Position numbers and translations under genes: made by a program. Below the pieces are notes generated by a model. The model searched no databases and was not told where the DNA came from. It saw nothing but the letters and a program-made list of their open reading frames with translations. From an uncultured Solirubrobacterales bacterium (GTDB lineage Bacteria > Actinomycetota > Thermoleophilia > Solirubrobacterales > Solirubrobacteraceae), in assembly GCA_963702905.1 (NCBI GenBank), contig OY969769.1, positions 17,533 to 81,532 on the forward strand: a DNA stretch of 64,000 nt, read 5' to 3'. This document shows, one piece after another, positions 11,454 through 36,597 of the stretch (its first letter is position 1; each line of letters opens with the position of its first letter).

Positions 11454-12812
11454 TCACCCCAGCTCGCGCTGCACGACCGCTACCAAGCGCTCGCAAGTAG
11501 CGTCCGCCTCCTCGTCGGTGGGCGCCTCCACCATCACGCGCACGAGCGGCTCGGTGCCGCTCGGGCGCACCAGCACACGACCGCGCCCGGAGAGCGCGCG
11601 ATCCTCGCTCTCTACCGCCTCGCTCACGCTGTCCGCGCCCGCGAGCGCGCCTCGGTCGCGCACAGGCACGTTGACGAGCCTTTGCGGCAACTTCTCCATC
11701 GCGTCACGCTCGGCGAGATCGCGTCCGGCGAGCGCCTCCAGCGTGAGCAGCGCGCTCGCGAGCCCATCTCCGGTGCTGTTGAAGCCCATGTCGATGATGT
11801 GACCCGACTGCTCCCCTCCGAGCGCCCACTCCTTGCGTCGCAGCTCCTCCAGCACGTAGCGGTCGCCCACGTTCGTGCAAGCCACCTCGATACCCGCCTC
11901 GCGCATTGCGGCGTGGAAGCCGTAGTTGGTCATCACGGTCACAACCACCCCGTCTCCCGCGAGACGGCTGCGCTCGCGCAGGTGCAGAGCCGCCAGCGCG
12001 ATCAGCTCATCGCCGTCCACCACCGCTCCCTCACGGTCCACCGCCAGCACACGGTCGCCGTCGCCGTCGAAAGCGAACCCGAGCGCGTGCCCCCCTTCGC
12101 GGACCCGCTCGCCAAGGCTTGCGATGTGGGTGGAGCCGCAACCGGCGTTGATGTTGCGCCCGTCCGGGTTTGCAGCAATGACCGTCACGTTCGCACCCAG
12201 CCGTCTGAACATCTCTGGAGCGACCTTGTAGGTGGCGCCGTTGGCGCAGTCCACCAGCACGTCGAGCCCATCGAGTCGCAGGTCCGCGAAGCGCGCTTCC
12301 AGCTCGCGCAGATAGTCCTCGTGGGTGGCGCGCAGCTCGCGCACGTGCCCGATCGCGGGACTTCCACCCGCGCGACCTCCGGTTGCGGAGGCGCCCGTGA
12401 GCGTTCCGTCGCCTCCGCTTGCCCCCACCTCGGCTTCGATCGCGATCTCCGCATCGTCCCCGAGCTTGAAGCCGTCGGCGCCGAAGAACTTCACCCCGTT
12501 GTCCCGGTAGGGATTATGGGACGCCGACAGCACCACCGCCAGGTCAAAGCCGTAGCGCTTGAGCAGCAAAGGGGCGGCAGGCGTGGGGAGCACCCCACCG
12601 AGCAGCGCTTCTCCTCCGGCGGCGCTCACACCGGCGGCGAGCGCCGCCTGCAGCATCTCCCCCGACTCGCGTGTGTCGCGCACGATCAACACTCGCGGGC
12701 GCTCCGCGCCCACGCGATGAGTGGCGGCCTTGCCAAGTGCGAGAGCCAGCTCAGCGGTCAGCAGCTCACCTGCGACACCACGGACGCCGTCGGTCCCGAA
12801 CAGCCTCGCCAT
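11454..12812 (-). CDS. glmM: Phosphoglucosamine mutase
   Basis: FGTDGVRG, SASHNP, DGDGDR, GGEQSGH, RPSGTEP. Confidence 0.96.
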   Translation of the reverse strand: MARLFGTDGVRGVAGELLTAELALALGKAATHRVGAERPRVLIVRDTRESGEMLQAALAAGVSAAGGEALLGGVLPTPAAPLLLKRYGFDLAVVLSASHNPYRDNGVKFFGADGFKLGDDAEIAIEAEVGASGGDGTLTGASATGGRAGGSPAIGHVRELRATHEDYLRELEARFADLRLDGLDVLVDCANGATYKVAPEMFRRLGANVTVIAANPDGRNINAGCGSTHIASLGERVREGGHALGFAFDGDGDRVLAVDREGAVVDGDELIALAALHLRERSRLAGDGVVVTVMTNYGFHAAMREAGIEVACTNVGDRYVLEELRRKEWALGGEQSGHIIDMGFNSTGDGLASALLTLEALAGRDLAERDAMEKLPQRLVNVPVRDRGALAGADSVSEAVESEDRALSGRGRVLVRPSGTEPLVRVMVEAPTDEEADATCERLVAVVQRELG

Positions 12813-12820
12813 AAAGGGGT

Positions 12821-13696
12821 CTAGCGCTTGGAGAACTGCGGGCGCTTGCGGGCCTTCTTGAGGCCTGCCTTCTTGCGCTCCTTGGCGCGCGAGTCGCGCG
12901 TGAGGAACCCGCGTCGCTTGAGCTCGCCGCGCAGGTTGGGGTCGGCCTCCAGCAGCGCGCGAGAGATGCCGTGACGCAGCGCGCCGGCCTGAGCCGAGAT
13001 CCCGCCGCCATGCAAGCGCGCGACTACGTCCATGCGGTCTTGGTAGCCAACGGTCTCAAGCGGCTGGCGGATGTTGCGCTGAAGCGTCACTCGCGGGAAG
13101 TGCTCGTCGAGCGCCTTCCCGTTGACGAGGTAGGCGCCGGTGCCGGGCCTGAGGATCACTCGCGCGATCGCCGTCTTGCGCTTGCCGGTCGCCTTGTAGC
13201 GAGCCCCGGAAGCCAGGTCGATGGCGGCTGTTGAGATCGGCTCTGGGAGGGGCTCGCTCTCGGTCTCCTCCTCAGCCCGTGGCTCCTCGTCCTCCTCGAT
13301 CGCATACGGATCGCTGGGTTGCTCGGGGGCGAGCGGATCGACGCCCTCTGGGACGATGTCAACTTCGAGGTGTGCTCCTGGGACACTCGGCTTGACGCGC
13401 GGCGCGGGGGCCTCTTCCTCCTCCTCGGAGTCACCCGCCTCCTCGGACGCGGCCTCCTCGGCGACCGGCTCACTCACCGAGGGCGCTTCTGGCTCAGACT
13501 CGGCGACAGGCTGCTCTGCGGGCGCCTCCGCAACGGGCTCCTCGACAGGCGCTGCCTCCTCTACGGACTCCTCGGCGACCGGCTGCGAGGCGCTCTCCTC
13601 GGCCGCGGCCGGGGTCTCCTCGGCAGATGACGCCTCGGGGGTGGGCTCGACCGGCTCAGGCTGCTCGTCGGTGTGCTCTGTCGGCTCGTCGGCCAT
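12821..13696 (-). CDS. rpsI: 30S ribosomal protein S9 with a long acidic N-terminal extension
   Basis: [11 protein letters not shown]...[10 protein letters not shown]...[19 protein letters not shown]. Confidence 0.96.
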
Positions 13697-14130
13697 CAGG
13701 CCTCGATCTCCATCGGTTGCGGTTTCTGGGCTACGTGTGGGTGCTCGGGGCCGGCGTAGACCTTGAGCTTGGTGATCTGCTTGCGAGCAAGGCGGTTGCG
13801 CGGCATCATGCCCTTCACGGCGAGTCTGATGATCTCCTCAGGACGGCGCTCGATCATTTCCTCAAAGGTGCGTGAGCGCAACCCACCGGGGTAGCCGGAG
13901 TGGCGGTAGTAGCGCTTGGCTTTGCGCTTGTCGCCGGTGACGGCGATCTTCTCCGCGTTCACAACCACCACGAAGTCGCCCGTGTCGATATGGGGTGTGT
14001 ACTCGGGCTTGCGCTTCCCGCGCAACACATCGGCGATCTGCGTGGCGAGACGCCCGAGCGTCTTGCCGTTCGCGTCGACGACGAGCCAGTTGCGCTCGCG
14101 ATCTGTTGGCTTGGCTACGTAGGTCTTCAT
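13696..14130 (-). CDS. rplM: 50S ribosomal protein L13
   Basis: [31 protein letters not shown]. Confidence 0.98.
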
Positions 14131-14182
14131 AACGTGAAAAAGGCCGCGCGAGGAAGCCGCGCGGCGCGACGGCGAATGATAG

Positions 14183-15790
14183 CTACTCCCACTCGATGGT
14201 GCCTGGGGGCTTGCTGGTGATGTCCAGCACCACCCGGTTCACCTCGCGCAGCTCGTTGATCATGCGCGAGGCGACCGTCTCAAGCAGGTCGTAGGGAAGG
14301 CGGGCCCAGTCGGCGGTCATAGCGTCGTCGGAGGTCACCGCGCGGATGACCACCACGTAGCCATATGTGCGCTCGTCGCCCTGCACACCGACGGTGCGCA
14401 CGTCGGGGAGCACACAGAAGGACTGCCACAGCTCACGGTAGAGCCCCGCCTTGCGGATCTCCTCCTGCAGGATGTGGTCCGCCTCGCGCAGCACGTCCAA
14501 ACGCTCCCTGGTTGCTTCGCCGCCGACGACCCTGATGGCAAGGCCCGGGCCGGGGAACGGCTGGCGCCACACCAGGCGCTCCGGCAATCCCAGCTCAGCG
14601 CCCACCGCTCTGACCTCGTCCTTGAAGAGCGCGCGCAGCGGCTCGACCAGCTCGAACTGCATGTCCTCAGGCAGGCCGCCCACGTTGTGGTGTGACTTGA
14701 TCGTGGCGGCGCCCGTGCCTCCGCCCGACTCGATCACATCGGAATAGAGGGTCCCTTGGACCAGATAGCGAGCGGGGCTTGAGGCAGAAATCTTCGTGGC
14801 CTCCTCCTCGAATACCCTGATGAACTCGGCGCCAATCGCCTTGCGCTTTGCCTCCGGCTCTGTGACACCTTTGAGCTTCTCCAGGAAGCGCGTCTCAGCG
14901 TCGACCGCCACGAGCGGCACCTTGAAGGTGTCGCGGAACGCGCTGATCACCTGCTCGCCCTCATCCTTGCGCATCAAGCCGTGATCGACGAACACGCAGG
15001 TGAGCTGGTCACCGATCGCGCGGTGCACGAGCAGCGCCGCCACAGAGGAGTCGACGCCTCCCGAGAGACCGCAGATGACGCGTCCGTCGCCCACCTGCTT
15101 GCGGATGCGCGCGATCTGGTCTTCGGCGATGGACGCCGGCGACCATGTGCGCTCGCAGCCGCACACCTCGGTGAGGAAACGCGTGAGGATCTCCTGCCCA
15201 TAGGGGGTGTGGACGACCTCAGGGTGGAACTGGATGCCGTAGATCCCATGTTCGACGTCCTCGACCGCCGCCACCGGCGAGGCCGTCGACGAGGCGAGCG
15301 CCGTGAACCCGGCGGGCGCCTCAAAGACCGTGTCGCGGTGTGACATCCAGCATGTCTGCTCCTTGGGCATCCCTGCGAGCAGCACCCCTGGCTCTGAGAC
15401 GGTGAGGTCGGAGCGGCCGAACTCGCCCACCTCGGCTTGCTCGACGCGACCTCCCAGCTCGTGGACGATGAGCTGCATCCCGTAACAGATGCCCAGCACC
15501 GGAACACCGAGATCGAGCAGTTCGCGCTCCAGGCGGGGCGCGCCGGACGCGTACACCGACGCGGGTCCCCCGGAGAGGATGATGCCGCGCGGTTTGCGCT
15601 TCACCACCTCCTCCAACCCGACGTGGTGGGGCAACAGCTCGGAGAACACCCCGCAGTCGCGGATGCGCCGCGCGATCAGCTGTGAGTACTGGCCCCCGTA
15701 GTCGAGGACCACCACCTCCTCGCGCGCCGCCGCCAGCCCGGTTGGGGCCTGTGGAGACGGCGCGGTGGCCGCGGCAGCGGTCTCAGTCAT
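14183..15790 (-). CDS. guaA: GMP synthase (glutamine-hydrolysing)
   Basis: [45 protein letters not shown]. Confidence 0.98.
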
Positions 15791-16973
15791 TGACTAGCGC
15801 TGCCGCCTTGCCGTTGGAGCCCATCCCCACGGACTGGTCCCGCTGAAGCTGCTTGCCCTCGGTTTGCAGGGCGGGCGCGATCACCACCTCCGCGCGGTTG
15901 AACTCGGCGAGGTCCTTGTGCCCACAGGTCGCCATCGAGGTGCGCAAGCCGCCGAACAGGTTGAAGGTGCCGTCGTTCTCACGCGCGGGCCCCACCAGGA
16001 TCTCCTCGAGCGTCCCGTTCTGGGTTGTCGCCACACGGGCGCCACGGGGAAGCGTGGGATGAAACGTCGCCATCCCCCAGTGAAAGCCCCGTCCCGGCGC
16101 TTCATGGGCGCGCGCAAGCGGCGATCCGATCATCACCGCGTCGGCGCCCAGCGCGATCGCCTTGGAGACATCACCGCCGTTGCGCATGCCGCCATCGGCG
16201 ATCACCTGGCAGTACTCGCCCGTCTCCAGCATGTGCGTGGAGCGCGCGTGGGCGACGTCCGCGATGGCGGTCGCCTGCGGCACGCCGATCCCCAGCACCC
16301 CACGCGTGGTGCAGGCGGCGCCCGGACCGACACCCACGAGCACGCCGGCAGCGCCGGTGCGCATCAGGTGAAGACCCGTCTGGTAGGAGGCGCAACCGCC
16401 CACCACCACCGGCACGTCGAGTGAGGGAATGAACTCCTTCAGGTTCAGCGGCTCTGACACCGTGGAGACGTGTTCGCCGGACACCACCGTGCCTTGGATC
16501 ACGAGCACGTCGAGGCCTGCCTCCAGCGCCAGCTCGTGGTACTCGAGCACCCGCTGGGGCGTCAGAGAGGCGGCCACGACCTGCTTTTGATCCTTGATTT
16601 CACGAATCCGCTGGGCGATCAGCTCAGGGATCACGGGCTGGCTGTAGATCTCCTGCATCTCCCGCGTCGCCACGTCCTTGGGCAGCTTGGAGATGCGCTC
16701 GAGCTGCTCGTCGGCGTCCTCATAGCGAGTGAAGATCCCCTCGAGGTTGAGCACCGCCAATCCGCCCAGTTCCCCCACGATCGCCGCCGTCTTCGGAGAC
16801 ACGACACCGTCCATTGCGGAGGCCATCATCGGCAGCTCGAACTGATAGGGACCGAGCTTCCAGGAGATGTCGATGTCGTCGGGGTCGCGTGTGCGCCTGG
16901 AGGGCACGATCGCGATGTCGTCGAATCCGTATGCGCGGCGGCCTTGCTTGCCGCGTCCAATCTCTACTTCCAT
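15783..16973 (-). CDS. guaB: GuaB3-type IMP dehydrogenase-related protein (no CBS domains)
   Basis: [17 protein letters not shown] start; [22 protein letters not shown]; IADGG. Confidence 0.9.
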
Positions 16974-17042
16974 CGAAGAATCCTTACAGTCGCGGCGGAC
17001 GAGCATAACAACCTGCTCGGAGCGCTTGGGTATGCTCGATCG

Positions 17043-19370
17043 GTGAGCCAGCGCACACTTCCACACTACGACCCACACGCGATCGAGCCCGCTCGGCAGG
17101 CCGCATGGAGCGAGCAAAACGCCTTCCGCACGCCCGCCATCGGAAGCGATCGGCCGCGCAAGTACATCAAGCCCTCGGCACCGTTCACCTCGGGGAACAT
17201 CCACATCGGGCACGTGCGCAGCTACTCGATCGGCGATGCCTACGCACGCTTCTGTCGCGCGCGGGGGGAGGACGTGCTGTTCGCGTTCGGCTTCGACTCC
17301 TTCGGCCTGCCCGCCGAGCTCGGCGCGATCGCCGGCAAAGAGTCGCCGAACGAGTGGGTGGAGCGCTGCGCTGAGCACATGATCGGACAGCTGCGACGCC
17401 TTGGGTTCTCCTTCGATTGGGAGCGCACGTTCATGAGCTCACACCCGATCATGTACCGCTGGTCGCAGTGGTTGTTCCTGACTCTCCTGGAGGCAGGTTT
17501 GGTGTACCGGGGTACCGGAAGCGTCGACTGGTGTGACACCTGCCAGACCACGCTCGCCACCATCCAGGTGGAGAACGGGGAGTGCTGGCGCTGCCACAAC
17601 CCAGTGCGCTTGATCCAGCAACCACAGTGGTACCTACGGATCAGCGCATACGTCGAGGAGAACGACCGGCGCCTGCAGGAGCTGGCGGAGAGCGGCATCT
17701 GGGATGAGAACGCGCTCGCCTCCCAACGCTTCGTGCTCGGGCGAGTGGATGGGGTAGAGCTCGACCTGTACGCGGCCGACGGAACGACGCTCGCGGTATT
17801 CACACCCCACACCGAGGCGCTCGAGGGGGCGCGTTTCGTGGCGATCTCCCCCAAGCACCCCGACGTTGAGCTGTGGGCGGCCGGGGCTGGACTGCACGAG
17901 CGCCTGGAGGAGTTGCGCTCGGGAGGGTTGGAGCGGGGAGCGCGCGAGGCGGAGAGCATGCCGTTGATCAACACGGGTAGAACACTGCCCTCCCCCACCG
18001 GCGGTGAGCCACTGCCGGTGATCGTCTCCCCAACCGTGGACGGTCGCTTCGGCGCGACGGCAGTGTTGGGGATCCCCGAGCACGACCGCACCGACGCGGT
18101 GATCGCCGAGCGACTGCTTGGGGCGCAGGGGGTATTCCCCTCACAGGGGGACTCGCGCGGGGACTCACCACAAAGCCCCGCGCGCGCACGCGAGGGGGTG
18201 GCTGAGGGAATACCCACAACCCTCACCGAGGGCTCCGATGCGGGTCGGCCGGCGGTGCGCTACCGGGCAAACGACTTCACGATCTCAAGGCAGCGCTCCT
18301 GGGGGACGCCGATCCCGATCGTGTACTGCGAGAGCTGCGGCGCCGTGCCGCTCCCCACCGAGCAATTGCCGGTGATCTTGCCGCTCGATCTCAAGCCCAC
18401 CGGCGCCGGTAACCCGCTGGCGGAGCGAGATGACTTCGTCAACACCACCTGCCCGGCCTGCGGGGGAAGCGCGAAGCGCGAGACGGACACGCTCGACTGC
18501 CACTTCGACGCGCTGTGGTTGTGGGTGCCGGTATGCGTGCCGACAAGTGAGCGGGAGCAGACGCTCGAGCACATCCTGGCGCTCGAGGATTTGCGCGCCT
18601 GGTTGCCCTCCGAGCGTGTGGTGGCGGGGTCGGACAGCGGGAACTTCGTGTTCGACCAGCGCACGGTGACCAAGGCGCTACGGGACATCGGCCCGCTCGA
18701 GTTCCTGGCGGATGGGGAGCCGTTCGCGGGGTGCCTCTTCCACGAGATGGTGATCCGGGACGGGCGCAAGATGAGCAAGCACCTCGGCAACGTGGTGGAC
18801 CCCGACGAGCTGGTGGGGCAGCACGGGGCGGACACGATCCGGCTGGCGGTGCTGTACGCCGCGAGGGCCCAGCGCTCGTTGAACTGGAGCGACAGCGACG
18901 TCAAGCGCTGCCATCGCTTTCTCAGGCAGCTATGGGAGTACTCCCAGGCGCGCTTCGCTATCGACCCGGCGGCGACATCGGGGGCCGAGACGAACGGAGC
19001 GTCTCCCGACGGCGAGCCCACGATGGGACCCGACAAGACCGAGCACCTGCGCAAGCGCTTGGAGCAATGGTGCGCGACCGCGGTGGAGAAGATCACCGAG
19101 GACGCGAGAGAGCTCGAGATGCACAGCGCGGTGCGCAACGTGATGCGACTGTTCGACCGCATCCGGGACTATGAGAAGCGGGTGCTCGCAAAGAGGGGAT
19201 CGCTGTGTGAGGAGGACCGCGAGGCGCAGGTGGAGGCGCTGCGGATGCTCGCGCGAGTGCTTATGCCCTTCGCCCCCCACATCGCCGAGGAGCTTCTGAT
19301 CGCATCGCATCCGGATGGCGCCGGGGAGATCGACGCGACGTGGCCCACGAGCGAGCTTGTGCCACGATGA
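17043..19370 (+). CDS. Leucyl-tRNA synthetase-like class I ligase paralogue (altered amino-acid pocket, C-terminal domain absent)
   Basis: HIGH and KMSKH motifs, FGLPAE, SRQRSWGTPIP, Zn knuckles, CP1-like GIPEHDRTD; GTG start 6 nt after TATGCT. Confidence 0.9.
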   Translation: MSQRTLPHYDPHAIEPARQAAWSEQNAFRTPAIGSDRPRKYIKPSAPFTSGNIHIGHVRSYSIGDAYARFCRARGEDVLFAFGFDSFGLPAELGAIAGKESPNEWVERCAEHMIGQLRRLGFSFDWERTFMSSHPIMYRWSQWLFLTLLEAGLVYRGTGSVDWCDTCQTTLATIQVENGECWRCHNPVRLIQQPQWYLRISAYVEENDRRLQELAESGIWDENALASQRFVLGRVDGVELDLYAADGTTLAVFTPHTEALEGARFVAISPKHPDVELWAAGAGLHERLEELRSGGLERGAREAESMPLINTGRTLPSPTGGEPLPVIVSPTVDGRFGATAVLGIPEHDRTDAVIAERLLGAQGVFPSQGDSRGDSPQSPARAREGVAEGIPTTLTEGSDAGRPAVRYRANDFTISRQRSWGTPIPIVYCESCGAVPLPTEQLPVILPLDLKPTGAGNPLAERDDFVNTTCPACGGSAKRETDTLDCHFDALWLWVPVCVPTSEREQTLEHILALEDLRAWLPSERVVAGSDSGNFVFDQRTVTKALRDIGPLEFLADGEPFAGCLFHEMVIRDGRKMSKHLGNVVDPDELVGQHGADTIRLAVLYAARAQRSLNWSDSDVKRCHRFLRQLWEYSQARFAIDPAATSGAETNGASPDGEPTMGPDKTEHLRKRLEQWCATAVEKITEDARELEMHSAVRNVMRLFDRIRDYEKRVLAKRGSLCEEDREAQVEALRMLARVLMPFAPHIAEELLIASHPDGAGEIDATWPTSELVPR

Positions 19371-19419
19371 CGGTGCGATTTCGATGCCAACCAACTCGAC
19401 ACGGAAGGGGTGAGACCGG

Positions 19420-20736
19420 ATGAGCGCCGCTACAGAGCGCGTGGACCTGAATGAGACAACGCGCTCCTGCGCCACCGAACTGGTGTGCCAGAGATGCGAT
19501 GTGAAGCTGCCGATCACCGACACGGAGGCGTTCTGCCCGGAATGCGGGAAGTGCTTGGACGTGGCGTACGACTACGACCTCGCGATCACACGCCTAAGAG
19601 AACGACCGATGTCGCAGCGCCCGTGGAACATCTGGCGCCTCTCCGAGCTGTCGCCAATCCGCGACGCCTACGCGCAGGCGCGGGTTGGCCAGTTCTCCGG
19701 TATGACCCCCCTGATCCCCGCCGACCGGCTCGGCGCGGCGTTGGGATTGAAAAAACTGTACGTGAAGGACGACAGCACGTCGCGTCCGAGCCTGTCCTAC
19801 AAGGACAGGGTTGTGTCCACCGCCGTGGCACGGTTGCTCGAGCTTGGCAAGGGCGAGATCGGGTGCGTGTCGACCGGCAACGTGGGCACCGCCGTCGCGT
19901 CTCTCGCCGCCAAGGCGGGGGTGACACCGTACGTGTTCTACCCCAACCGGCTGGAGCAGACCAAGGCGAAGGCGTGTAGAGCGCTCGGCGCAAAGGTGTG
20001 TCAGGTGGCGGGGAACTACGACGAAGCCAACCGTGAGTGCAAGAAGGTGGCGGCGGCAAGCGGTCTGGAGTTCGCGAACATCACGTTGCGCCCCTTCTAC
20101 GCGGAGGGAGCGAAGACGATGGCGTTCGAGATCGTGGAGCAGCTTGGATGGAAGGCGCCCGACAACATCGTGTCGGCGACCGCCGGGGGGACGCTGTCCT
20201 CGCGTTTGCACAAGGGGCTCGTGGAGCTTGAAACGGTGGGATTGGCGAAGACGAGCGCAACCAAGATGCACATCGCCCAGCCCGCGGGATGCTCGCCGAT
20301 CGCGAGCGCGATCGGGGCGAGAGATGCGGAGATCCACCCGTGCACGCCGGAGACGATCGCGCATTCGCTTGCTATCGGCAGCCCCGGCGACGGGTACCTG
20401 GTAATCGACGCGGTGCTTTCCCGCCACGGCAGCGCGGGGTCGGCCAGCGATGAGGAGATCTTCGCGGGCATCGACCTACTCGCGGCAACCGAGGGGATCC
20501 TCACCGAGCCTGCGGGAGGCACAACCGTCGCGGTGCTGAAGAAGTTGGCGGAAGCGGGCGAACTTGACCCTGATGCGACTGTGGTGGCGATCATCACCGG
20601 CAACGGTTTGAAGACGCTGGAGGATCACCCCGAGAAGCCGTGGCCGCAGACGGAGTGCGAGGTGGAGTCGATGCTGTCGGTGCTGAGCGAGCTCCAGCGG
20701 GAGCAGGCAGCCGAGGGTCAGCCGCTACCGGCCTGA
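19420..20736 (+). CDS. Threonine-synthase-like PLP-dependent enzyme (fold type II)
   Basis: N-terminal CxxC..CxxC, GMTPL, SYKDR (PLP Lys), STGN, FYAEGAKT, TEPAGG, ITGNGLK. Confidence 0.88.
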   Translation: MSAATERVDLNETTRSCATELVCQRCDVKLPITDTEAFCPECGKCLDVAYDYDLAITRLRERPMSQRPWNIWRLSELSPIRDAYAQARVGQFSGMTPLIPADRLGAALGLKKLYVKDDSTSRPSLSYKDRVVSTAVARLLELGKGEIGCVSTGNVGTAVASLAAKAGVTPYVFYPNRLEQTKAKACRALGAKVCQVAGNYDEANRECKKVAAASGLEFANITLRPFYAEGAKTMAFEIVEQLGWKAPDNIVSATAGGTLSSRLHKGLVELETVGLAKTSATKMHIAQPAGCSPIASAIGARDAEIHPCTPETIAHSLAIGSPGDGYLVIDAVLSRHGSAGSASDEEIFAGIDLLAATEGILTEPAGGTTVAVLKKLAEAGELDPDATVVAIITGNGLKTLEDHPEKPWPQTECEVESMLSVLSELQREQAAEGQPLPA

Positions 20737-21399
20737 GGCTGCTGCGTCGGCGACCACAAGCGCGCGGTCGGGTGCGACCCGGCCGGCGGGGATCGAGTGG
20801 TCGTGAGCGCGCAGGCGCCGTAGTGCGTCAACCTTGTCGGCGCCGGTGACGATCCACAGCAAGGCCCGCGCTCGGTCGATGACCGGGTAGGTGAGGGTCA
20901 TACGGGGCCGGCCCTGGTAGGAGCCGACGAGGGAAACGTCGCGATCTGTGACGTCGAGGACGGGATCGTCGGGGACCAGCGAGGCGGTGTGGCCGTCGGG
21001 GCCGAGACCGAGATGGATCAGATCGAAGCGGGCGGGCAGGAGCGCCGCATAGCGTGCGCCGGCGGCGTCGAGATCCGGGTCCTCGACCGGCATGGGATAC
21101 ACGCGAGCGAACGCCTCCGAAGGCAGAACGGCCCGCAGGTGGGTGAGGTTGCGGTCCTCGCTGCCGGCGGGCGCGACGCGCTCGTCCACCTGGTAGATCG
21201 ATGTCCGATCCCAGGGGAAGTCCGCGCGGGCCAACTCTGCAAACACAGCCCACGGGGTGCGACCGCCGCTGAACGCGAACGTGAAGGAGCCGCCCTCGGA
21301 GATCGCGGCGTGCGCGTGCTCGCGGATGACTTCGGCGGCACGAATGGCCACGGCCGCGGGATCGGGCAGAACCTGGACGGGTGGGATCTCCTCGCTCAC
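20725..21399 (-). CDS. pgl: 6-phosphogluconolactonase
   Basis: [32 protein letters not shown]. Confidence 0.88.
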
Positions 21400-23045
21400 A
21401 AGCAGTGGCGCAGCGCGCGGTAGCGGCAGATGAGCGCGTTGGTGGAGCTGTCGTGGTCGAGCGAAGGCTCGGTGTCGCTTTGAAGCTCGGGGATGATGCG
21501 CTTGGCAAGCGCCTTGCCGAGCTCGACGCCCCACTGGTCAAACGAGTCGATGTCCCATATGACGCCTTGTACGAACACGGAGTGCTCGTACAAGGCGATG
21601 AGCGCGCCAAGCGTGTGTGGGGTGAGCTGCTCGGCGAGCACGACATTCGTGGGTCTGTTGCCGGCCATCACCTTGTGAGCGACGACAGCGTCCGGGACGC
21701 CCTCGGCACGAACCTCCTGAGCGGTCTTGCCGAACGCGAGCGCCTCGGCCTGCGCGAAGACGTTTGACATCAGCAAGTCGTGATGGTCGCCGAGAGGGTT
21801 GAGAGGACGGGCGAAGGCGATTAGATCTACGGGGATGAGCCTCGTCCCCTGGTGGATCAACTGGTAGAAGGAATGTTGGCCGTTCGTGCCCGGCTCCCCC
21901 CAGTAGATAGGGCACGTATCAAAATCGACTTCTACGCCATCGAGGGTGACGTGCTTTCCGTTTGACTCCATCGCTAGCTGCTGGAGGTAGGCGGGAAAGC
22001 GCTTGAGATACTGGCTGTAGGGCATGACTCCGTGCGTGTGGGCGCCGAGGAAGTTGTTGTTCCAGACCGCGAGCAGCCCCATCAGCACAGGCAGGTTGCG
22101 CTCGTAGGGGGTGACGCGAAAGTGGTGGTCCATCGCGTGAAAGCCGGCGAGCAGCTCGTGGAAGTGGGTCGGGCCGATCGCGAGCATGGTGGATAGGCCG
22201 ATGGCGGAGTCCATCGAGTAGCGGCCGCCGACCCAATCCCAGAAGCCGAACATGTTGGTGGTGTCGATGCCGAACTCGGCGACCGCGTGGGCGTTGGTGG
22301 AGACGGCGACGAAGTGCTTGGCGACGGCAGCCTCGTCGCCGAGCGCGTCAAGCAGCCAGGCGCGGGCGGAGCGAGCGTTGGTCATCGTCTCGAGCGTGGT
22401 GAAGGTCTTGGAGGAGACGATGAAGAGCGTCTGGGCGGGGTCGAGGTCGCGGGTGGCCTCCACGAAGTCGGTGGAGTCGACGTTTGAGACGAAGCGAAAT
22501 GTGATGTCGCGACGGGTGTAGTGGCGTAGCGCCTCGTAGGCCATCACCGGGCCGAGGTCGGAGCCGCCGATACCGATATTGACCACGTTTGTGATGGGCT
22601 TGCCGGTGTGACCCGTCCACTCACCCGAGCGAACCTGGTCTGCGAAGGCGGCCATGCGATCGAGCACGGTGTGGACCTCCCCCACGACATCCACGCCGTC
22701 GAGCATGAGCGAAGCGCTCTTTGGCATCCGCAGCGCGACGTGCAAGACGGAGCGGTTCTCGGAGACGTTGATGCGCTCGCCCGTGAACATCGCCTCGGTG
22801 CGTTCTGATAGGCCGGCTTGGTTGGCGAGCGCGAGCAGCAGCGTCATCGTCTCGTCGGTAATGCGGTTCTTGGAGAAGTCGAGGTAGAGCCCCGCGCCCT
22901 CGGCGGTGAGCCGCTCGCCACGGACGGGGTCGGCGGCGAACAGCTCGCGCAGTGAGGCGTCGGCTATCGCGGCACGGTGGCGAGCGAGATCTCCCCAGGC
23001 GGGGAGCGCGGTGGGTGAGGGTTTTGACCTTTGCATCGTGCTCAT
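21396..23045 (-). CDS. pgi: Glucose-6-phosphate isomerase
   Basis: [41 protein letters not shown]. Confidence 0.97.
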
Positions 23046-24268
23046 CTCACGGAGACCTCTTCCTGGAGGTGGTCCTGGGAGGCTATAGCGGCGCAGTGGG
23101 GGCTACAGAAATAGAGGGTCTTCCCATCTATCTCCTTGCGAATCGCCTTGGCCTTGTCGACCTTCATACCGCACACAGAGTCGGTTGCGCCCCGACGCAT
23201 CGTGAGGGCGAACAGCGCAGCGAACACGGCGATGCCGAGAATGTTGGCGATGAGCTTGTAGTCGACTTTGACTTCACTGAAGATGTCGGCGCGAGTGGGA
23301 CGTACGGTGGGAATCAGGCCGGCGACGCTGAATATGCCATCGATGGCTAGCGCTGCGAGCACCATCGTGACGAACATGAGCGCGACGATGCGGAGTGTGA
23401 ACTTGCCGCCGTAGTACTTGCGGTAGATGAGCAGGATCGGCACCACCAGGAGGTCGGCGAAGATGAAAGAGATGACCCCCGCGAAGCCGATCCCGCCCGA
23501 CCACAGGACGGCGGCGAGCGGGATGTTGCCGACAGAGCACACGAAGGAGAGGATCGCGATGACCGGCCCGACGAGGGCGTTCTCGATCAACTTGAGCGGG
23601 GCCGGAGCGTCGGTGATGAAGAGCGAGTTCCATACGCTGTTGTCGATCTGGCCGATGAAGCCGGCGAGCAGGAAGCCGAGGGCGATCTCCTTGTAGAGCA
23701 TCGTCCAGTCGTTGCGGAAGTTGTGTGCGACGTCCGACCAGGCGGAGATGGAGGTGAGCCGCTCGCGGAGGCTCATGTTTGTGCCCACGGAGTGGTGCTG
23801 GTGGCCGGTGTCGGCCTCGATCGCGTGGGCGCGGGCTTGCTCTTCAAGGCGCTTGGAGACGAACACGCGCAGGAGGGCTGTCATGACGACGATGAGGATC
23901 AGCCCACCGACGAACTCCGCGAGCGTGAACTGCCAGCCGAGCAAAACCCATACGACGATGCCAAGCTCGATCACGAGGTTGGTGGAGGCGAACTGGAAGG
24001 CGAGCGCGGACGCCGCTGAGGAGCCCTTCTGGAAGAGGCTCTTGGCGATGGCGATCGCCGCGTAGGAGCACGAGGACGAGGCGGCTCCCAGCCCGGTGGC
24101 GACGGCTATGGACCTCGAACCGGTCCCGCCGAGCGCCCGCTCGATGCGGGTACGCGGTATCCATGCCTGGACGACCGCGGAGATGGCGAAGCCAAACACG
24201 AGCGCCCACCACACAGCCCAGGCCATGAGGAAGGCGTCCTTCAGGGCGTCGGCGATGGTTGTCAGCAC
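23042..24268 (-). CDS. DUF318/ArsP-like metal permease with C-terminal YHS-like domain (start may lie further upstream, up to 24367)
   Basis: SSSCSY and FVCSVGNIP motifs, His-rich loop, DSVCGMKVD...YFCSPHC. Confidence 0.8.
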
Positions 24269-24370: not shown

Positions 24371-24398
24371 GAAAAGCCCCGCCGGAGCGGGGCTTTTC
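24371..24398. terminator. Intrinsic terminator downstream of rnpB (symmetric, possibly bidirectional)
   Basis: GAAAAGCCCCGC-CGGA-GCGGGGCTTTTC perfect inverted repeat. Confidence 0.85.
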
Positions 24399-24402
24399 CT
24401 TA

Positions 24403-24728
24403 GCAGGTCGATAACCCGGGTTCTGTCGTTGAACAGCCATCCATCTGAGCGGCCTACCTGGATCTCGGCGGGCTACCTACAAGCGATCCGCTTTGGCCTT
24501 GCATCGGGTGGGGTTTGCCCAGCCGCCGCGTCACCGCGGCGCTGGTGCGCTCTTACCGCACCATTTCACCCTTACCGGCCCGCCGTTCACGTGGGACGGC
24601 GGGCTTAGGCGGTTTGTTTCTGTGGCACTTTCCCGCGGGTTTCCCCGGGTCGATAGCTCGACCACCTTGCCCTGTGATGTCCGGAGTTTCCTCGAAGGCC
24701 CGAGGGCCTCCGCGGCTGCCTGACCTGC
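24403..24728 (-). ncRNA. rnpB: RNase P RNA (bacterial type A)
   Basis: Minus strand: 5' GCAGGUC pairs with 3' GACCUGC (P1); GAGGAAACUCCGGAC; GGUAAGGGUGAAA...GGUGCGGUAAGAGCGCACC; GCAAGGCCAAA; ACAGAACCCGGGUUA. Confidence 0.95.
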
Positions 24729-24775
24729 ACTGTCACGGTAGCGCGGGACGGGGGTTGTTGGAAGGGGTGGACGAG

Positions 24776-26431: not shown

Positions 26432-26507
26432 TACAGTAGCGCGGCTCCTGGACGGAATCAAGGGAGCGCCGTCCGGCAAAGGCCCGACGGCTATACTCGC
26501 CCGCTCT

Positions 26508-26593
<86 letters not shown>

Positions 26594-26598
26594 TGGAG

Positions 26599-26623
26599 AA
26601 AGCCCGCAAATGCGGGGGCTTTT
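26599..26623 (+). terminator. Probable terminator after tRNA-Leu
   Basis: AAAGCCCGC-AAAT-GCGGG(GG)CTTTT hairpin with T tail. Confidence 0.65.
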
Positions 26624-26708
26624 GTGTGTCGAGCACAGTTCTGGCGGAAAGTCACCGACACTGCTAAAGCTGGCAGATAGAGCGCTGAGGTAGATCTGGC
26701 TGTCGGCG

Positions 26709-26836
26709 TTAGCCGAGCAGCTTCTCGGTGCGAGCGAGGACCTGCGAGGCGGGTAGTTCAAGGGCGGCGACGATCTTGAGGATGTTGGCAAGCGAGACGT
26801 TGCGCTCGACATCGCCGTAGTAGACGCGATTGCCAC
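26709..26836 (-). pseudogene. Truncated XRE-family HTH gene
   Basis: YYGDVERNVSLANILKIVAAL resembles the XRE 'YY.DVERGERN.SL.NI' pattern, with an internal deletion and no N-terminal helices. Confidence 0.55.
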
Positions 26837-27377
26837 GAGTGGGCATCATGGTGCGACTCCTTGACAAGTTAGTTACGATCGCCCCACGAAGAGGGGAGGA
26901 TGCACATGATCCAGATAGCCGGTTAAACATGAACGAGACACGTCTTTGCTCAGCGCTCAATTTGCGAAGACGATGGTCTTGCTTAAAGGTCTCAGTGGCC
27001 AACGCCAGAAAGCGTGGGATCATATGGCGGCTTCATAGTCTGGTGGCGCAGCAGCCGTAAATGCCTCGAGAATCCAGTCGCTGGTACTGAAAGTGCCCGC
27101 CGTTGCGAGTCCCGCAAAGCCGCACACAAGGCGGGCATCGGCAAAGTGCAAAATGGCAGCCTTGTTTTTTGGCAAAACATTTGGCCCACGGGAGCCAATC
27201 AAGAGCCGATCAGAAACCTGTACGATTGATCGGAATTACCGACAGCTAGCACGAAGGTCATTTAATTGCGTTGTCGCTGCGAAAGACCGGGCTATCCATC
27301 GGCCATTCGGGTTTGATCCTGTCTAGCTTCGCCGGTATCAGCCGAACTCGAACCCGCGATGACTGCACGAGCCGCCG

Positions 27378-27743
27378 TCAAGCAACAGCCGCGAACTCTC
27401 TCTCTACCTCGCCATCGACCGTGCGCTGAAAGCACACAAGCAGATCCTCGTCTAGGACAGCGGCGATACGTTGCAGCGTCGGCAACTGCGGGATGTGCGT
27501 GCCCTTCTCAAGTCGAGAGACGGCGCTGTGGGAAGTGTCCGCCGCCTTAGCGACCTCCTCCTGGGTGAGCCCCAACTCGAAGCGCCGCTCGCGCAGATGC
27601 GCCGCGATCGGGCTGACCTCGCGAAGGGCACGGATGCGCTCGTATTCGGCGCGAGCGTCGCGGTAGGCAGTGCTGCGCTTGGCGCGGCCCTGAGCTGCCT
27701 CGACGGCGCTGCTCCCAACGGGACTCTGTAGATCGGTAGCCAT
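27378..27743 (-). CDS. XRE/HTH antitoxin (HigA-like)
   Basis: LRERRFELGLTQEEVAKAADTSHSAVSRLEKG; lies directly downstream of a RelE-fold toxin. Confidence 0.8.
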   Translation of the reverse strand: MATDLQSPVGSSAVEAAQGRAKRSTAYRDARAEYERIRALREVSPIAAHLRERRFELGLTQEEVAKAADTSHSAVSRLEKGTHIPQLPTLQRIAAVLDEDLLVCFQRTVDGEVEREFAAVA

Positions 27744-27774
27744 ATCAGTAGCTTATCACGGCTGATAAGTACAG

Positions 27775-28215
27775 TCACCCACCTCGCGACCCCGGAGGCG
27801 CATCGCGCCCAGCGGCACGAGGACGCCGACGAGGGCTCGCATTCATCCTCGCCTCGAAGTCGACCATCCGTGCCTGGGCCGTCCTCTTGTCCTTCGCCGT
27901 GACCGCGCCCGTGTTCTTCTCGAAGGCATGGAGCAGGACCATCAGGTTCCGAGAGCGTTGGTAGAGCACGCGATAGCGCGTCTTGGCGAATCGGACGCGC
28001 AGCTCTCGCAGCTCTCCCTCGATCTGCGACGTGACCGGAAACTCCGGCGGCGGGTGGCGCGGATCGCGACCGTTCAGATGCTCTTCGATGGCGTCGTCTA
28101 TCTTCGCAACGGCCAGAGGCTGCACGTCCAGCAGTTCCTCAAGAAAGTCGTTGACCGGCTCCCTCCCACGGCTGTCGCGGTAGAAGACCGACTGCGTGCG
28201 GATGTGGCGCGCCAC
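27775..28215 (-). CDS. RelE/HigB-like (Gp49/DUF891-type) toxin; start uncertain
   Basis: VFYRDSRGREPVNDFL...GELRELRV...RVLY...VLLHAFEKNT. Confidence 0.8.
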   Translation of the reverse strand: MARHIRTQSVFYRDSRGREPVNDFLEELLDVQPLAVAKIDDAIEEHLNGRDPRHPPPEFPVTSQIEGELRELRVRFAKTRYRVLYQRSRNLMVLLHAFEKNTGAVTAKDKRTAQARMVDFEARMNASPRRRPRAAGRDAPPGSRGG

Positions 28216-28271
28216 GGCTGCATCCGCCCGAGAACTTTGTAGGCGCTTCGCTCTCGGCACGACCGAGAAGA

Positions 28272-30167: not shown

Positions 30168-30231
30168 GCCGTAGACCTCACACTAATCGTTGTTAAGTCT
30201 ACCACAGACAGTATTAAAATGAACCATAAAC

Positions 30232-31053
30232 TCATGGTGAAACTCCGCTTAGAACATTGAGCGCGGAGTGCGAAGCGGCCACCATAAACAACCCCTCGGG
30301 CAGTGTCTTGTCCCGAGCGATGGCGCGCTGTATGCGTTTGGCCCTGGCCTCATCCGGTGCAATCCAGCAGACACGTGGGAACACCCCACCATGCGTAGCT
30401 TGCTCCTGACCAGACTGGTAATACTCAGCGTAGAAACGGCACTTACGCACCACCACTGGCAGACTCTCACTGTCACGGTCAACCTCTATAAACCACCGTA
30501 GCTCATACTCGCCTACCCCAAGCGCCACAAACGCATCGGGGCGCAGCACCCGCCGCCCGCTCATACTGCTGAACTCCCGCCAACAACGTGGCTCGGCTTG
30601 GCAGTCCAGCAGATCCAACAATGCTCTGCGCGAGGCCATTGTCACGTCTACGACGAGTTGAGCTATAGCCAGCGTGTGATCGACAAAGCGTAGTCCCGGT
30701 TCGTATGAGCGTCGCCGTGGGCCGTCTATCGCCAACACCCGCTGACCCACCGGCCCCAGCGCTAGCACCAAGCCCGCCGAACCAGCTCGCACCCCACCGA
30801 TCCGCCGCTCCAATCGGCTCAACAGTCGTTCGCGGGTCAACCGCTCAAGAACCCGCTGGCGAGCGCGCGTGGCGGCCCGCTCGTTGTCGTGCTCAGCAGT
30901 AGGGAAGTGGATAGCTTGAATCTGCCGTGCGCTCATCAGGCGCAGTTCGGCCATCTGCCGAATAATCGCCAGGTCGCGCTCGGCTAGGCGCTCACGAATC
31001 AACGCCACCCCCCTCGCCGAGATATACGGACGTACTGGTACAGCCTCCCTCAT
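30232..31053 (-). CDS. Replication-relaxation (Replic_Relax-like) protein
   Basis: N-terminal wHTH (RDLAII...RLMSARQI), DHTLAIAQL, RPDA...FIEVDR PD-(D/E)xK-like motifs. Confidence 0.82.
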   Translation of the reverse strand: MREAVPVRPYISARGVALIRERLAERDLAIIRQMAELRLMSARQIQAIHFPTAEHDNERAATRARQRVLERLTRERLLSRLERRIGGVRAGSAGLVLALGPVGQRVLAIDGPRRRSYEPGLRFVDHTLAIAQLVVDVTMASRRALLDLLDCQAEPRCWREFSSMSGRRVLRPDAFVALGVGEYELRWFIEVDRDSESLPVVVRKCRFYAEYYQSGQEQATHGGVFPRVCWIAPDEARAKRIQRAIARDKTLPEGLFMVAASHSALNVLSGVSP

Positions 31054-31354
31054 TCGCCGCCGCCATCCTTTTCTTTCGTAACCAAAGAAGCAGTGACGAA
31101 AGAAGTTGGGTTGGGTTGCACCCACCACTCGACGCGATGAGCACCCCCACCCCCCAAGTGCTGCTTCACCTCTGTTGATGCCCGCGCGCCACCGTCAGCT
31201 ACAACAATCCGCCGCTGCCCACCGCGCCGAAGCGAAAAGGGATGACACAAGTAGTGAAAGACTTTCGTTGCCAAAGTTCGGGCAGCAATAGCTTCCATAC
31301 ACGGGTTTTGGGGTTTGGGTGTCCACCCGATACGACAAGCGACACGACAGGCCC

Positions 31355-33520: not shown

Positions 33521-33720
33521 GTGCCAGCCTCGCCTTTGTCAGTCGATGCGCTCCGGCGTTTGGCCTTAGTCCGTTTGTCGTGTTCAGCTTCAGCCTCCGC
33601 CTCCGCCTTGGCTGCCTCCAAGTCGATCAAGACTCGGGCCAAGCGTGGCAAGTCAGTTGGCCGGCGAATGCCGCGAACCCGGATACGCCGCTCTTTACCG
33701 TGATGATACGTTCTACTCAT
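33517..33720 (-). CDS. Small element-borne protein (MSRTYHHGKERRIRVRG...)
   Basis: Strong GAAAGGAGGT RBS; stop overlaps the coupling-protein start. Confidence 0.7.
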   Translation of the reverse strand: MSRTYHHGKERRIRVRGIRRPTDLPRLARVLIDLEAAKAEAEAEAEHDKRTKAKRRSASTDKGEAGT

Positions 33721-33969
33721 ATATATGACCTCCTTTCGCTCCACACCGGGCAGAAAAAAAGACACAAAGAGCACCGCACCCTGCAAAGGGCGAATTACTG
33801 CGACTGCTGTGTTCGTCTCTCAACCGAGCCGTGTATCACTTATGGCGATAACGGGAACCCTCTAGTTAACGACATTGCCGGGCCGCCAGTCAATACATCT
33901 TGTGCATTTCACTACAGCGAAACGGCTATTGTTATCTCAAGCAAATTGCAACCAAAATATTAAATGGCC

Positions 33970-34684: not shown

Positions 34685-34853
34685 GAGTCTGTCCTTTCGG
34701 GAGTGTGGAGGAGCCCGGTAAAGTCTTTCGACTTATGGACTCCCGATTGATTGCCATATACATAACTAGCGCCTGCGAACTGGGTGCGCGTCACGCTTTC
34801 TCAAGTTGTGACATTGGCCCTGTCACGCCGGGACAGAAGGGATACGGTCACCA

Positions 34854-36588: not shown

Positions 36589-36597
36589 TTGTTTCCG

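Follow-up and report, generated by a model that had tools for sequence, protein, structure and literature searches.

Aminoacyl-tRNA synthetase (aaRS) paralogs have repeatedly proved to be enzymes with new chemistry, as in MshC, PoxA, SbzA, and HisZ. Among bacterial leucyl-tRNA synthetases (LeuRS), AgnB2 reportedly charges tRNA-Leu and is said to have been crystallized with tRNA and Leu-AMS. Duplicate LeuRSs have been described in archaea. Sulfolobus LeuRS-I makes Leu-AMP and binds tRNA but shows no aminoacylation, its CP1 being disrupted and its C-terminus aberrant; haloarchaeal LeuRS2 has very low activity (PMC9437257). A role outside normal aminoacylation is suspected for both (PMC9437257, PMC4005665). 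The 2022 and 2026 aaRS reviews include no LeuRS-derived aaRS-like enzyme, and the two archaeal proteins are the only LeuRS duplicates they cover.

Here we analyze a LeuRS-like gene in a 64,000-nt stretch of DNA (the window) from an uncultured Solirubrobacterales bacterium. The gene probably encodes a functional LeuRS-derived class Ia aaRS paralog that is catalytically competent and activates an amino acid with altered specificity.

The LeuRS-like gene and its active site

The product of window positions 17043-19370 (+) is a 775-aa homolog of bacterial-type LeuRS, and its GTG start is backed by homolog N-termini (n=17). Pfam matches are tRNA-synt_1 (PF00133, 154.7 bits), the LeuRS editing domain PF13603 (45.6 bits, residues 232-356, covering the first 130 of 185 profile positions), and Anticodon_1. 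The protein scores 461.8 bits against NCBIfam TIGR00396 (leuS_bact), the equivalog for bacterial leucine--tRNA ligase, which is under the curated whole-protein cut-off of 548.4 bits. It falls outside the archaeal/eukaryal type (TIGR00395 leuS_arch, 134.7 bits vs a cut-off of 648.5). The closest solved structures by sequence are the LeuRSs of N. gonorrhoeae, T. thermophilus, and E. coli (E 1e-118 to 1e-102). Superposed on bacterial LeuRS, an AF2 model (pLDDT 79.5) gives a TM of 0.75; it matches LeuRS structures at E 1e-56, with 29-32% identity in the structural alignments. The PF00133 match and the LeuRS-fold model place the protein in the class Ia aaRS catalytic superfamily. Homologs carry the name "class I tRNA ligase family protein" at NCBI and "leucyl-tRNA synthetase" at JGI. 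Consensus scanning of the flanks for promoters and terminators found none above chance, and a look for expression evidence turned up no listed RNA run. The gene, its motifs and domains, and its downstream neighbor are located as follows.

17043..19370, + strand: LeuRS-like gene, 775 aa, GTG start
17175..17213, + strand: first pocket motif (altered) and, after it, HIGH (intact), SAPFTSGNIHIGH, residues 45-57; 13/13 residues invariant in 18 homologs
17286..17318, + strand: FGFDSFGLPAE, residues 82-92, including Asp85; invariant
17532..17594, + strand: first Cys cluster, C164/C167/C181/C184, a ZN1-type knuckle; all four Cys invariant
17736..18125, + strand: CP1/editing-like insert (Pfam, homolog alignment, comparison with canonical LeuRS)
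18126..18239, + strand: disordered linker of variable length, residues 362-399, in place of the C-terminal part of CP1; pLDDT 26-37
18327..18461, + strand: second Cys cluster, C429/C432/C470/C473 (sequence and homolog alignment)
18495..18524, + strand: DCHFDALWLW, residues 485-494, instead of DTFVDSSWYF (alignment)
18618..18662, + strand: VVAGSDSGNFVFDQR, residues 526-540, instead of YIGGVEHAILHLMYAR; the two pocket His are both gone (alignment)
18768..18782, + strand: KMSKH (KMSKS loop), residues 576-580 (sequence and alignment)
19074..19346, + strand: anticodon-binding-type helical domain (PF08264; Pfam, AF2 model)
19420..20736, + strand: thrC (438-aa threonine synthase), on the same strand and 49 nt beyond the end of the LeuRS-like gene

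The initial annotation had described the ATP motifs (HIGH and KMSKH), the FDSFGLPAE Asp region, and the Zn knuckles as intact, and each motif was found as placed. Asp85 corresponds to Asp80 of the T. thermophilus and E. coli enzymes, which binds the alpha-amino group in established LeuRS structures. It had also reported every leucine-pocket motif as changed, and comparison with canonical LeuRS bears this out (SAPFTSG, DCHFDALWL, and VVAGSDSGNFVFDQR). For reference, the canonical Solirubrobacteraceae LeuRS P0408 has LEMLPYPSGEPHIGH, VFTTRPDTL, ETDTMDTFVDSSWYF, QYIGGVEHAILHLMYARF, and KMSKSKGN. Not one of the residues lining the leucine side-chain pocket is kept, and the subfamily shows no variation in the residues that have taken their place. 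The pocket remains hydrophobic for the most part; it gains Ser45, Ser532, Asn534, and His487, the last (in DCHFDALWLW) a hallmark across an entire family of short LeuRS-like proteins. From the pocket changes we infer, with the initial annotation, a substrate that may be an amino acid other than leucine and is possibly non-proteinogenic. Being mostly hydrophobic, the rebuilt pocket might conceivably still bind leucine.

In the CP1-like insert, TTRPDT reads TPHTEA as previously noted: FTPHTEAL (residues 253-260) stands for (F/Y)TTRPDT(L/I), with Ala at the E. coli T252 position. T252A structures (5OMW, 5ON2) are among the structural matches of the AF2 model. Both Asp of AVPAHDERD are kept in GIPEHDRTD (residues 343-351; Asp348 and Asp351). 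The insert had been called intact; we add that its C-terminal third is replaced by the P/S/G/D/E-rich linker (residues 362-399; homolog alignment and AF2 model). The protein terminates (...WPTSELVPR) 8 residues past the anticodon-binding domain, in agreement with the earlier description of a product of about 775 aa without the VQVNGK C-terminal domain; P0408 runs about 67 residues further (VCQVNGKVRDRV...). Likewise, 16 of 17 aligned homologs terminate at ELV(P/S/R)R, whereas the C-terminus of the remaining one, P0001, is frameshift-like. The protein thus has a reduced editing domain and no tRNA-elbow-binding C-terminal domain.

A second LeuRS that still activates leucine in a non-canonical role (a sensor or regulator, a poor aminoacylator, or an isozyme insensitive to a natural inhibitor) is an unlikely explanation. 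It has precedents in Sulfolobus LeuRS-I and haloarchaeal LeuRS2 (PMC9437257), the disrupted CP1 and missing C-terminus are as in LeuRS-I, and an intact ATP site with a hydrophobic pocket would suit it. However, the pocket motifs are replaced wholesale, beyond a few resistance positions, and the self-resistance enzyme AgnB2 (5AH5) aligns full length, to chain residue 743 of 822. Pocket residues also differ among subfamilies of the short LeuRS-like family, which suggests differing ligands and not leucine throughout.

Canonical leuS in related genomes

In dozens of Solirubrobacterales/Solirubrobacteraceae MAGs, a motif scan of GTDB genomes found leuS at full length, complete in its motifs and C-terminal domain; among the carriers are the complete 3.2-3.65 Mb chromosomes OY970317.1, OY969106.1, OY969117.1, and OY969799.1. 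The canonical Solirubrobacteraceae gene encodes about 850 aa with a VCQVNGK C-terminal domain and adjoins holA-rpsT-murJ. One canonical LeuS has more than 120 protein clusters at 83-92% identity, several of them named "leucine--tRNA ligase [Solirubrobacteraceae bacterium]". Canonical Solirubrobacteraceae LeuS is 33-36% identical to the LeuRS-like protein (P0408, 35%). The tetranucleotide correlation with the window is r 0.97 for several canonical-leuS loci and r 0.976 for L001, a locus that carries the LeuRS-like gene. The most GC-rich canonical match, P0157, was rejected as the LeuRS of the lineage because it is an Omnitrophota LeuRS. Because an ordinary leuS occurs in related genomes, the LeuRS-like gene is most likely a second enzyme, and its product most likely coexists with canonical LeuS. 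The leuS genes of these relatives strongly suggest a paralog beside canonical leuS.

At the opposite extreme, the LeuRS-like protein would be the only LeuRS of the cell, a minimal housekeeping enzyme that recognizes leucine in its rebuilt pocket and needs no C-terminal domain to charge tRNA-Leu. We consider this alternative quite unlikely. It would fit the finding that no genome or contig among those compared was seen to carry both the LeuRS-like gene and canonical leuS. A tblastn search of the window with four LeuRSs found no canonical leuS (the sole match is the LeuRS-like gene), and counterparts of its flanking genes holA, rpsT, and murJ were not found in the window. The listed contigs with the LeuRS-like gene and those with canonical leuS share none. 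Among ENA Mb-size contigs, the LeuRS-like gene occurs in ERZ25039518/540/543 and canonical leuS in ERZ25039587/590, with no sample in common. Carriers of the LeuRS-like gene include contig_2058 of ERZ25039543 (3,292,141 bp) and a 3,207,672-bp contig that encodes P0590. An exact look-up of the window ThrC gave no record, and for the window L13 the contigs listed were all short. A JGI metagenome scan with canonical LeuS established no co-occurrence with the LeuRS-like gene, and the canonical locus L047 was absent from the soil-metagenome runs that contain the window strain, whose Logan contigs (150-500 nt, 2-3x depth) are too fragmentary to link the two genes.

A published alignment, apparently of the best match per genome to T. 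album LeuRS, points the same way (PMC6544083, Supplementary Fig. S18). Its sequence for "Solirubrobacterales bacterium 70-9" is of the same type as the window protein and that for Solirubrobacter soli resembles the short-family member P0127; the top LeuRS-like matches of both are short-family proteins. The figure hints that certain genomes may be without an annotated canonical leuS. Housekeeping surroundings, a housekeeping-like divergence rate, intact HIGH, KMSK, and Asp85, and a largely hydrophobic pocket would also be expected of a sole LeuRS.

Against a sole LeuRS, many equal-sized genomes of this bacterial family, sequenced in the same project, carry canonical leuS. Each leucine-contacting motif differs, and the C-terminal domain, which E. 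coli LeuRS requires for aminoacylation, is absent. The T252A mutant of E. coli LeuRS hydrolyzes Leu-tRNA-Leu, and the LeuRS-like protein has Ala at that position. The score is under the leuS_bact cut-off, and relatives of the protein lie in biosynthetic clusters or are catalytically dead. The earlier statement that the gene is not the housekeeping leuS has indirect support: canonical leuS is widespread in the family and the window protein belongs to a separate short family, but a leuS in the same genome was not located.

Conservation, the thrC pairing, and the wider family

More than 120 homolog clusters with 75-94% identity occur in Solirubrobacteraceae MAGs. Across 18 homologs (76-92% identity), 434 of 775 alignment columns are invariant, as are 53 of the 54 columns in active-site motifs. 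Between the window and L001, the LeuRS-like protein is 81% identical, compared to GlmM (81), Pgi (81), ThrC (84), and GlmS (85). Purifying selection acts on the gene about as strongly as on housekeeping enzymes. Relaxed selection among homologs, which the initial annotation had named, together with a lack of adenylation activity, as counting against its reading, is not what we see, and a pseudogene was rejected on the basis of the invariant pocket motifs and divergence at the GlmM/Pgi rate. The proposal of an adenylating enzyme is consistent with this selection and with the invariant HIGH, KMSK, and Asp85.

The genes around the LeuRS-like gene in the window are glmS, glmM, rpsI, rplM, guaA, guaB3, thrC, and pgi. 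These are housekeeping genes, and a biosynthetic-cluster reading of the locus was rejected for this reason. The neighboring PLP enzyme mentioned in the initial annotation is threonine synthase (NCBIfam TIGR00260, 214.9 bits; cut-off 167.1). The LeuRS-like gene is directly upstream of the threonine synthase gene in 5/5 loci examined, and the pair is kept down to 65% identity, including on a contig with other upstream genes. The two genes are inherited as a pair.

We predict that the paralog would form an aminoacyl-adenylate from ATP and an alpha-amino acid, with leucine either not the substrate or not the only one. The acceptor of the aminoacyl group would be a tRNA held without C-terminal domain contact, a carrier, or a small molecule. 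Pairing with thrC points to a possible tie to threonine-pathway metabolism.

The conserved thrC adjacency might also suit an accessory protein without synthetase function, such as an allosteric or scaffold partner of threonine synthase (cf. HisZ-HisG) or a trans-acting CP1 deacylase. About 14 short-family representatives are without HIGH/KMSKS and keep the CP1 motifs FTP[HYF]x[DE] and PxxDxxD, and the editing-site Asp348 and Asp351 are kept in the window protein, both of which would favor such a role. But HIGH, KMSK, Asp85, and the synthetic-site lining are invariant in the subfamily, unexpected if catalysis there were dispensable, and in CP1 the C-terminal third is gone, as is most of the Thr-rich motif. 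We regard an accessory role as highly improbable.

The window protein is nearer to short LeuRS-like proteins of other lineages (P0121, 60%; P0127, 45%; P0130 of Acidobacteriota, 41%) than to the LeuRS of its own bacterial family, and it belongs to a separate, older family. The literature searched contains no description of this family. Among distant members, some have genes that overlap one for a B12-binding radical SAM protein and lie close to an HDO or YqcI/YcgG enzyme gene. Another is clustered with genes for an oxidase, an aminotransferase, and an N-monooxygenase and with two further aaRS-like genes. A location of this biosynthetic-cluster type was found only for the distant relatives P0130, P0133, and P0135.

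A bolder reading, which we offer tentatively as one that may well be wrong, is that the short proteins are undescribed LeuRS-derived ligases, cluster-borne in other phyla. There they would act beside B12-radical-SAM enzymes, diiron/heme oxygenases, and further aaRS-like subunits. The Solirubrobacteraceae branch, fixed with thrC, would have been recruited to core metabolism and would load a non-leucine amino acid, possibly threonine-pathway-derived, onto a dedicated acceptor.

Comparison with described synthetases

The protein is a bacterial LeuRS derivative with its adenylation machinery kept and its pocket rebuilt, highly conserved in abundant, largely uncultured soil actinobacteria. Knowing what it activates and what receives the product could uncover a new ligase reaction, and a function found for it would extend to the thousands of genes that now bear the JGI and NCBI names given above. 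The family also bears on annotation and on leuS-based marker-gene sets. If it were the sole LeuRS, this would overturn the view that bacterial LeuRS requires the C-terminal domain.

With canonical bacterial LeuRS (TIGR00396; 6Q89 of N. gonorrhoeae, 1H3N of T. thermophilus, 4AQ7 of E. coli, and P0408), the LeuRS-like protein has a common fold (TM 0.75) and shares the Rossmann core, HIGH, KMSKS, the alpha-amino Asp, the ZN1 knuckle, the CP1 position, and the helical anticodon domain. It differs in having SAPFTSG for MxPYPSG, DCHFDALWL for DTFxDSSWY, and AGSDSGNFVF for GGxEHAxxHL. TTRPDT, a full CP1, the C-terminal domain, and the holA-rpsT adjacency are all found with canonical LeuRS and absent here.

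LeuRS-I of Sulfolobaceae and LeuRS2 of Halobacteria are duplicate LeuRSs that resemble the window protein, a probable second LeuRS-type enzyme, in that CP1 is disrupted and the C-terminal domain aberrant or missing (PMC9437257, PMC4005665). LeuRS-I is an archaeal enzyme and LeuRS2 is reported with archaeal tRNA-binding domains, whereas the window protein is bacterial-type. The archaeal proteins are reported to activate leucine or bind tRNA-Leu, whereas the window protein has a rebuilt leucine pocket, known from its sequence.

SbzA (IleRS-like) and MshC (CysRS-like) reuse an aaRS scaffold for non-translational ligation, and distant short-family members are cluster-borne. These two enzymes stem from IleRS and CysRS, whereas the window protein is LeuRS-derived and encoded among housekeeping genes.

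AgnB2 (5AH5, Agrobacterium radiobacter K84) is also bacterial-type and ranks with the top matches by both sequence and structure. It is the second LeuRS of its organism, serves in self-resistance, and is a full LeuRS, unlike the window protein, which has neither the C-terminal domain nor the leucine-pocket motifs.

Gene, domains and rebuilt motifs

A GTG codon starts the LeuRS-like gene (17043-19370, + strand), whose product is 775 residues long. Pfam assigns the protein the class I synthetase core (PF00133) and an anticodon-binding domain, with a weak and partial match to the LeuRS editing domain (PF13603). The NCBIfam equivalog model for bacterial leuS is its top match, yet the score of 461.8 bits is below the curated threshold of 548.4. 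The nearest solved proteins are LeuRS of N. gonorrhoeae, T. thermophilus and E. coli, on which the AlphaFold2 model (mean pLDDT 79.5) superposes with a TM of ~0.75. Every motif quoted in the initial annotation is as it had been described there, and we aligned the protein with canonical Solirubrobacteraceae LeuRS to set the two side by side.

Motifs in canonical Solirubrobacteraceae LeuRS and in the LeuRS-like protein
LEMLPYPSGEPHIGH in the canonical enzyme, KPSAPFTSGNIHIGH in the LeuRS-like protein
VFTTRPDTL in the canonical enzyme, VFTPHTEAL in the LeuRS-like protein
ETDTMDTFVDSSWYF in the canonical enzyme, ETDTLDCHFDALWLW in the LeuRS-like protein
QYIGGVEHAILHLMYARF in the canonical enzyme, RVVAGSDSGNFVFDQRT in the LeuRS-like protein
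KMSKSKGN in the canonical enzyme, KMSKHLGN in the LeuRS-like protein

The protein has a LeuRS fold with an intact ATP and alpha-amino site, and its side-chain pocket is rebuilt: Met/Phe are replaced by Ser45/Ala46, Phe by His487, and two His by Ser532 and Phe535, while Phe48, Phe488, Leu491, Leu493, Trp494, Phe535 and Phe537 are the pocket residues kept. CP1, the editing-domain insert, is truncated, its C-terminal third swapped for a linker that is disordered, biased in composition and of differing length among homologues. The reported absence of the C-terminal domain is borne out by the alignment, in which the LeuRS-like protein has nothing to match the ~67 residues that close the canonical enzyme (…VCQVNGKVRDRV…VVPGKLVNFVV); the anticodon-binding-type domain and zinc modules are kept and the elbow-binding domain is gone. 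The leucine-specific insertion is also missing but is not distinguishing, because the canonical LeuRS of the lineage lacks it as well. Judged by sequence, the protein descends from bacterial LeuRS and is predicted to work like it. It nevertheless falls short of bacterial LeuRS in four defining features: its score is under the cut-off, the pocket motifs are replaced, CP1 is kept only in part, and the C-terminal domain is missing.

Genomic setting and conservation

Features of the window around and beyond the LeuRS-like gene
before the LeuRS-like gene, - strand: glmS, glmM, rpsI, rplM, guaA, guaB3
12821-13696, - strand: rpsI ORF, 291 aa, S9 domain only at residues 171-291
15783-16973, - strand: GuaB3-type IMP-dehydrogenase-related protein, divergent from the LeuRS-like gene
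49 nt downstream of the LeuRS-like gene, same strand: threonine synthase (thrC), TIGR00260 above cut-off
beyond thrC: pgi, then an ArsP-type permease gene
24396-24731, - strand: bacterial RNase P RNA class A, 216 bits, between the ArsP-type permease and Dps-like ferritin genes
26507-26594: tRNA-Leu(GAG)
28272-30167, - strand: large serine recombinase
30232-31128, - strand: Replic_Relax protein
31355-33520, - strand: type IV coupling-protein-like ATPase

The context is core genome, and a biosynthetic-cluster setting for the window gene is rejected on the identity of these neighbours. The surrounding block is kept on three megabase-size contigs. The only recurrent partner of the LeuRS-like gene is thrC, and the pair persists at a 65%-identical homologue despite different upstream genes.

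Among 5.8 billion proteins searched, more than 120 clusters match at 75-94% identity; they are ~755-820 aa long, and several are on 3.2-3.5 Mb contigs. The homologues go under the name 'class I tRNA ligase family protein [Solirubrobacteraceae bacterium]' at NCBI and 'leucyl-tRNA synthetase' at JGI. In an alignment of 18 sequences, 56% of columns are invariant overall, versus 53 of the 54 in five active-site motifs. The terminus ELV(P/S/R)R is common to 16 of 17 aligned homologues; only P0001 differs, its C-terminus being frameshift-like. The LeuRS-like protein of the window is 81% identical to that of L001, a related locus carrying the gene, and proteins of the same syntenic block are at similar values (GlmM 81, Pgi 81, ThrC 84, GlmS 85). 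The invariant active-site columns and this housekeeping-like divergence, equal to that of GlmM and Pgi, indicate purifying selection and rule out a relic; relaxed selection, which the initial annotation had named, together with a lack of adenylation activity, as counting against its reading, is not seen.

The GuaB3-type protein of the window is unusually conserved, at 97% identity to its L001 orthologue when most neighbours are at 81-85%. The N-terminal extension of ~170 residues in rpsI seems real, because the L001 gene call is similar (295 aa). After tRNA-Leu(GAG), GC falls to 0.57-0.63 over ~18 kb (0.67 in the flanks); this stretch contains the recombinase, Replic_Relax and ATPase genes and a Gp49-like protein, and the 3' 50 nt of the tRNA gene are repeated at 28395-28444 (94% identical). 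At 26507-45000 an integrative element, mobilisable or conjugative, thus seems to have inserted at tRNA-Leu. Pieces of 151-233 nt assembled from a 2024 soil metagenome (X1, study P1) are 100% identical to window 12000-24000 at ~2-3x depth, so the same strain was present in that sample.

A wider family of short LeuRS-like proteins

By exhaustive HMMER search against 1.84 billion cluster representatives, the protein falls in a family of LeuRS-like proteins that are short (650-780 aa) and lack the C-terminal domain. The family is marked by PF(T/P)SG-x-H-x-GH, LD(C)H-x-D, G-(S/A)-D-x3-(F/Y/W) and GRKMSKHLGN. By BLASTP the window protein is closer to members P0121 (60% identity), P0127 (45%) and one from Acidobacteriota (41%) than to the LeuRS of its own lineage (35%), which indicates an old divergence and not a recent duplicate. 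The positions of Met40/Phe41 and several further pocket positions vary between subfamilies, the pattern expected if these were to bind different ligands. About 14 representatives lack HIGH and KMSKS, yet have the CP1 motifs FTP[HYF]x[DE] and PxxDxxD.

The gene contexts of distant members look biosynthetic. At two loci the LeuRS-like gene overlaps the start of a B12-binding radical SAM gene.

Loci of distant family members
L003, 7577-12783, Acidobacteriota MAG: overlap locus, 84-aa ORF upstream and DUF3865/heme-oxygenase-like diiron enzyme downstream
L004, 7231-11656, JGI metagenome contig: overlap locus, YqcI/YcgG protein upstream
L132, 1-10175, ENA ERZ27251455 k141_1427184: biosynthetic-cluster-like operon

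The L132 operon encodes, in order, a Lys/Orn N-monooxygenase, a class III aminotransferase, a degenerate short-family protein of 524 aa (CP1 and anticodon domain, without HIGH/KMSKS), a cupin, a 538-aa MetRS-like protein, an FAD oxidase and, at the end, the 724-aa short LeuRS-like P0135.

Additional atypical LeuRS-like types occur among the representatives (P0145, P0147, P0150, P0159, P0170, P0174, P0191, P0213, P0219, P0253), for example with PP(Y/F)(P/A)NG-x-LH(L/M)GH in combination with GG-x-(E/D)Q-type motifs. In some, of 700-790 aa, the C-terminal tail is nearly absent, and P0145 carries the NCBI name leucine--tRNA ligase. The canonical picture seems to understate how diverse LeuRS is in uncultured high-GC bacteria.

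Canonical leuS and the predicted role of the probable paralogue

A canonical leuS is absent from the 64-kb window by tblastn with four LeuRSs. We scanned one genome per GTDB species with CGMVPVP[DE] back-translated in GC-rich codons; Thermoleophilia MAGs, under Solirubrobacterales, Gaiellales and related labels, make up about half of the 120 matches listed. Dozens carry the label Solirubrobacterales or Solirubrobacteraceae, complete 3.2-3.65 Mb chromosomes among them. The LeuRS encoded at these loci is full-length (~850 aa), has all canonical motifs as well as the C-terminal domain, and shares only 33-36% identity with the LeuRS-like protein; leuS lies upstream of holA, rpsT and murJ. The canonical enzyme as query returns more than 120 clusters at 83-92% identity, named 'leucine--tRNA ligase [Solirubrobacteraceae bacterium]' by NCBI. 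Since such loci are found in genomes of the family and several match the window in tetranucleotide composition (r ~0.97, as good as L001), the family possesses an ordinary leuS.

That the LeuRS-like gene is a distinct, conserved and probably catalytic paralogue is well supported. We consider it unlikely that it is instead the only, housekeeping LeuRS of its genome. Such an enzyme would have lost the C-terminal domain, which E. coli LeuRS requires for aminoacylation, and would have every leucine-contacting motif replaced. Its residue equivalent to E. coli T252 would be Ala, and T252A causes the editing site to hydrolyse Leu-tRNA-Leu. The wider short family, with its biosynthetic-looking contexts and members without HIGH and KMSKS, is a further point against it. 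The two genes were never found in one genome: no contig is common to the LeuRS-like and canonical leuS matches listed, and the sample accessions of five megabase-size contigs differ. An alignment in PMC6544083 (Suppl. Fig. S18) includes canonical LeuRS segments from Conexibacter, Patulibacter and some Solirubrobacterales, and also a MAG '70-9' sequence of the short type and one from Solirubrobacter soli that resembles P0127. The sole-LeuRS reading is kept live because these short-type sequences would be odd choices if an annotated canonical enzyme were present. The initial interpretation is supported in part; its claim that the gene is not the housekeeping leuS is likely, on the indirect evidence of the canonical leuS of the family and of the separate short family.

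For the paralogue, we predict an enzyme that uses ATP to activate an alpha-amino acid, with a side chain unlike leucine, as the aminoacyl-adenylate; the aminoacyl group would then be handed to a putative acceptor. This may be a tRNA, in line with the anticodon-binding-type domain and zinc modules, or another molecule, in line with the loss of the elbow-binding domain. Reviews of aaRS-like enzymes (2022, 2026) name no LeuRS-derived one, and our literature search found no description of the short LeuRS-like family. The archaeal duplicates LeuRS-I and LeuRS2 likewise have a damaged CP1 and C-terminus and an undefined role (PMC9437257), but the protein described here differs from them in being bacterial-type with a rebuilt leucine pocket. 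It is like SbzA and MshC in principle only. It would belong with the repurposed aaRS paralogues.
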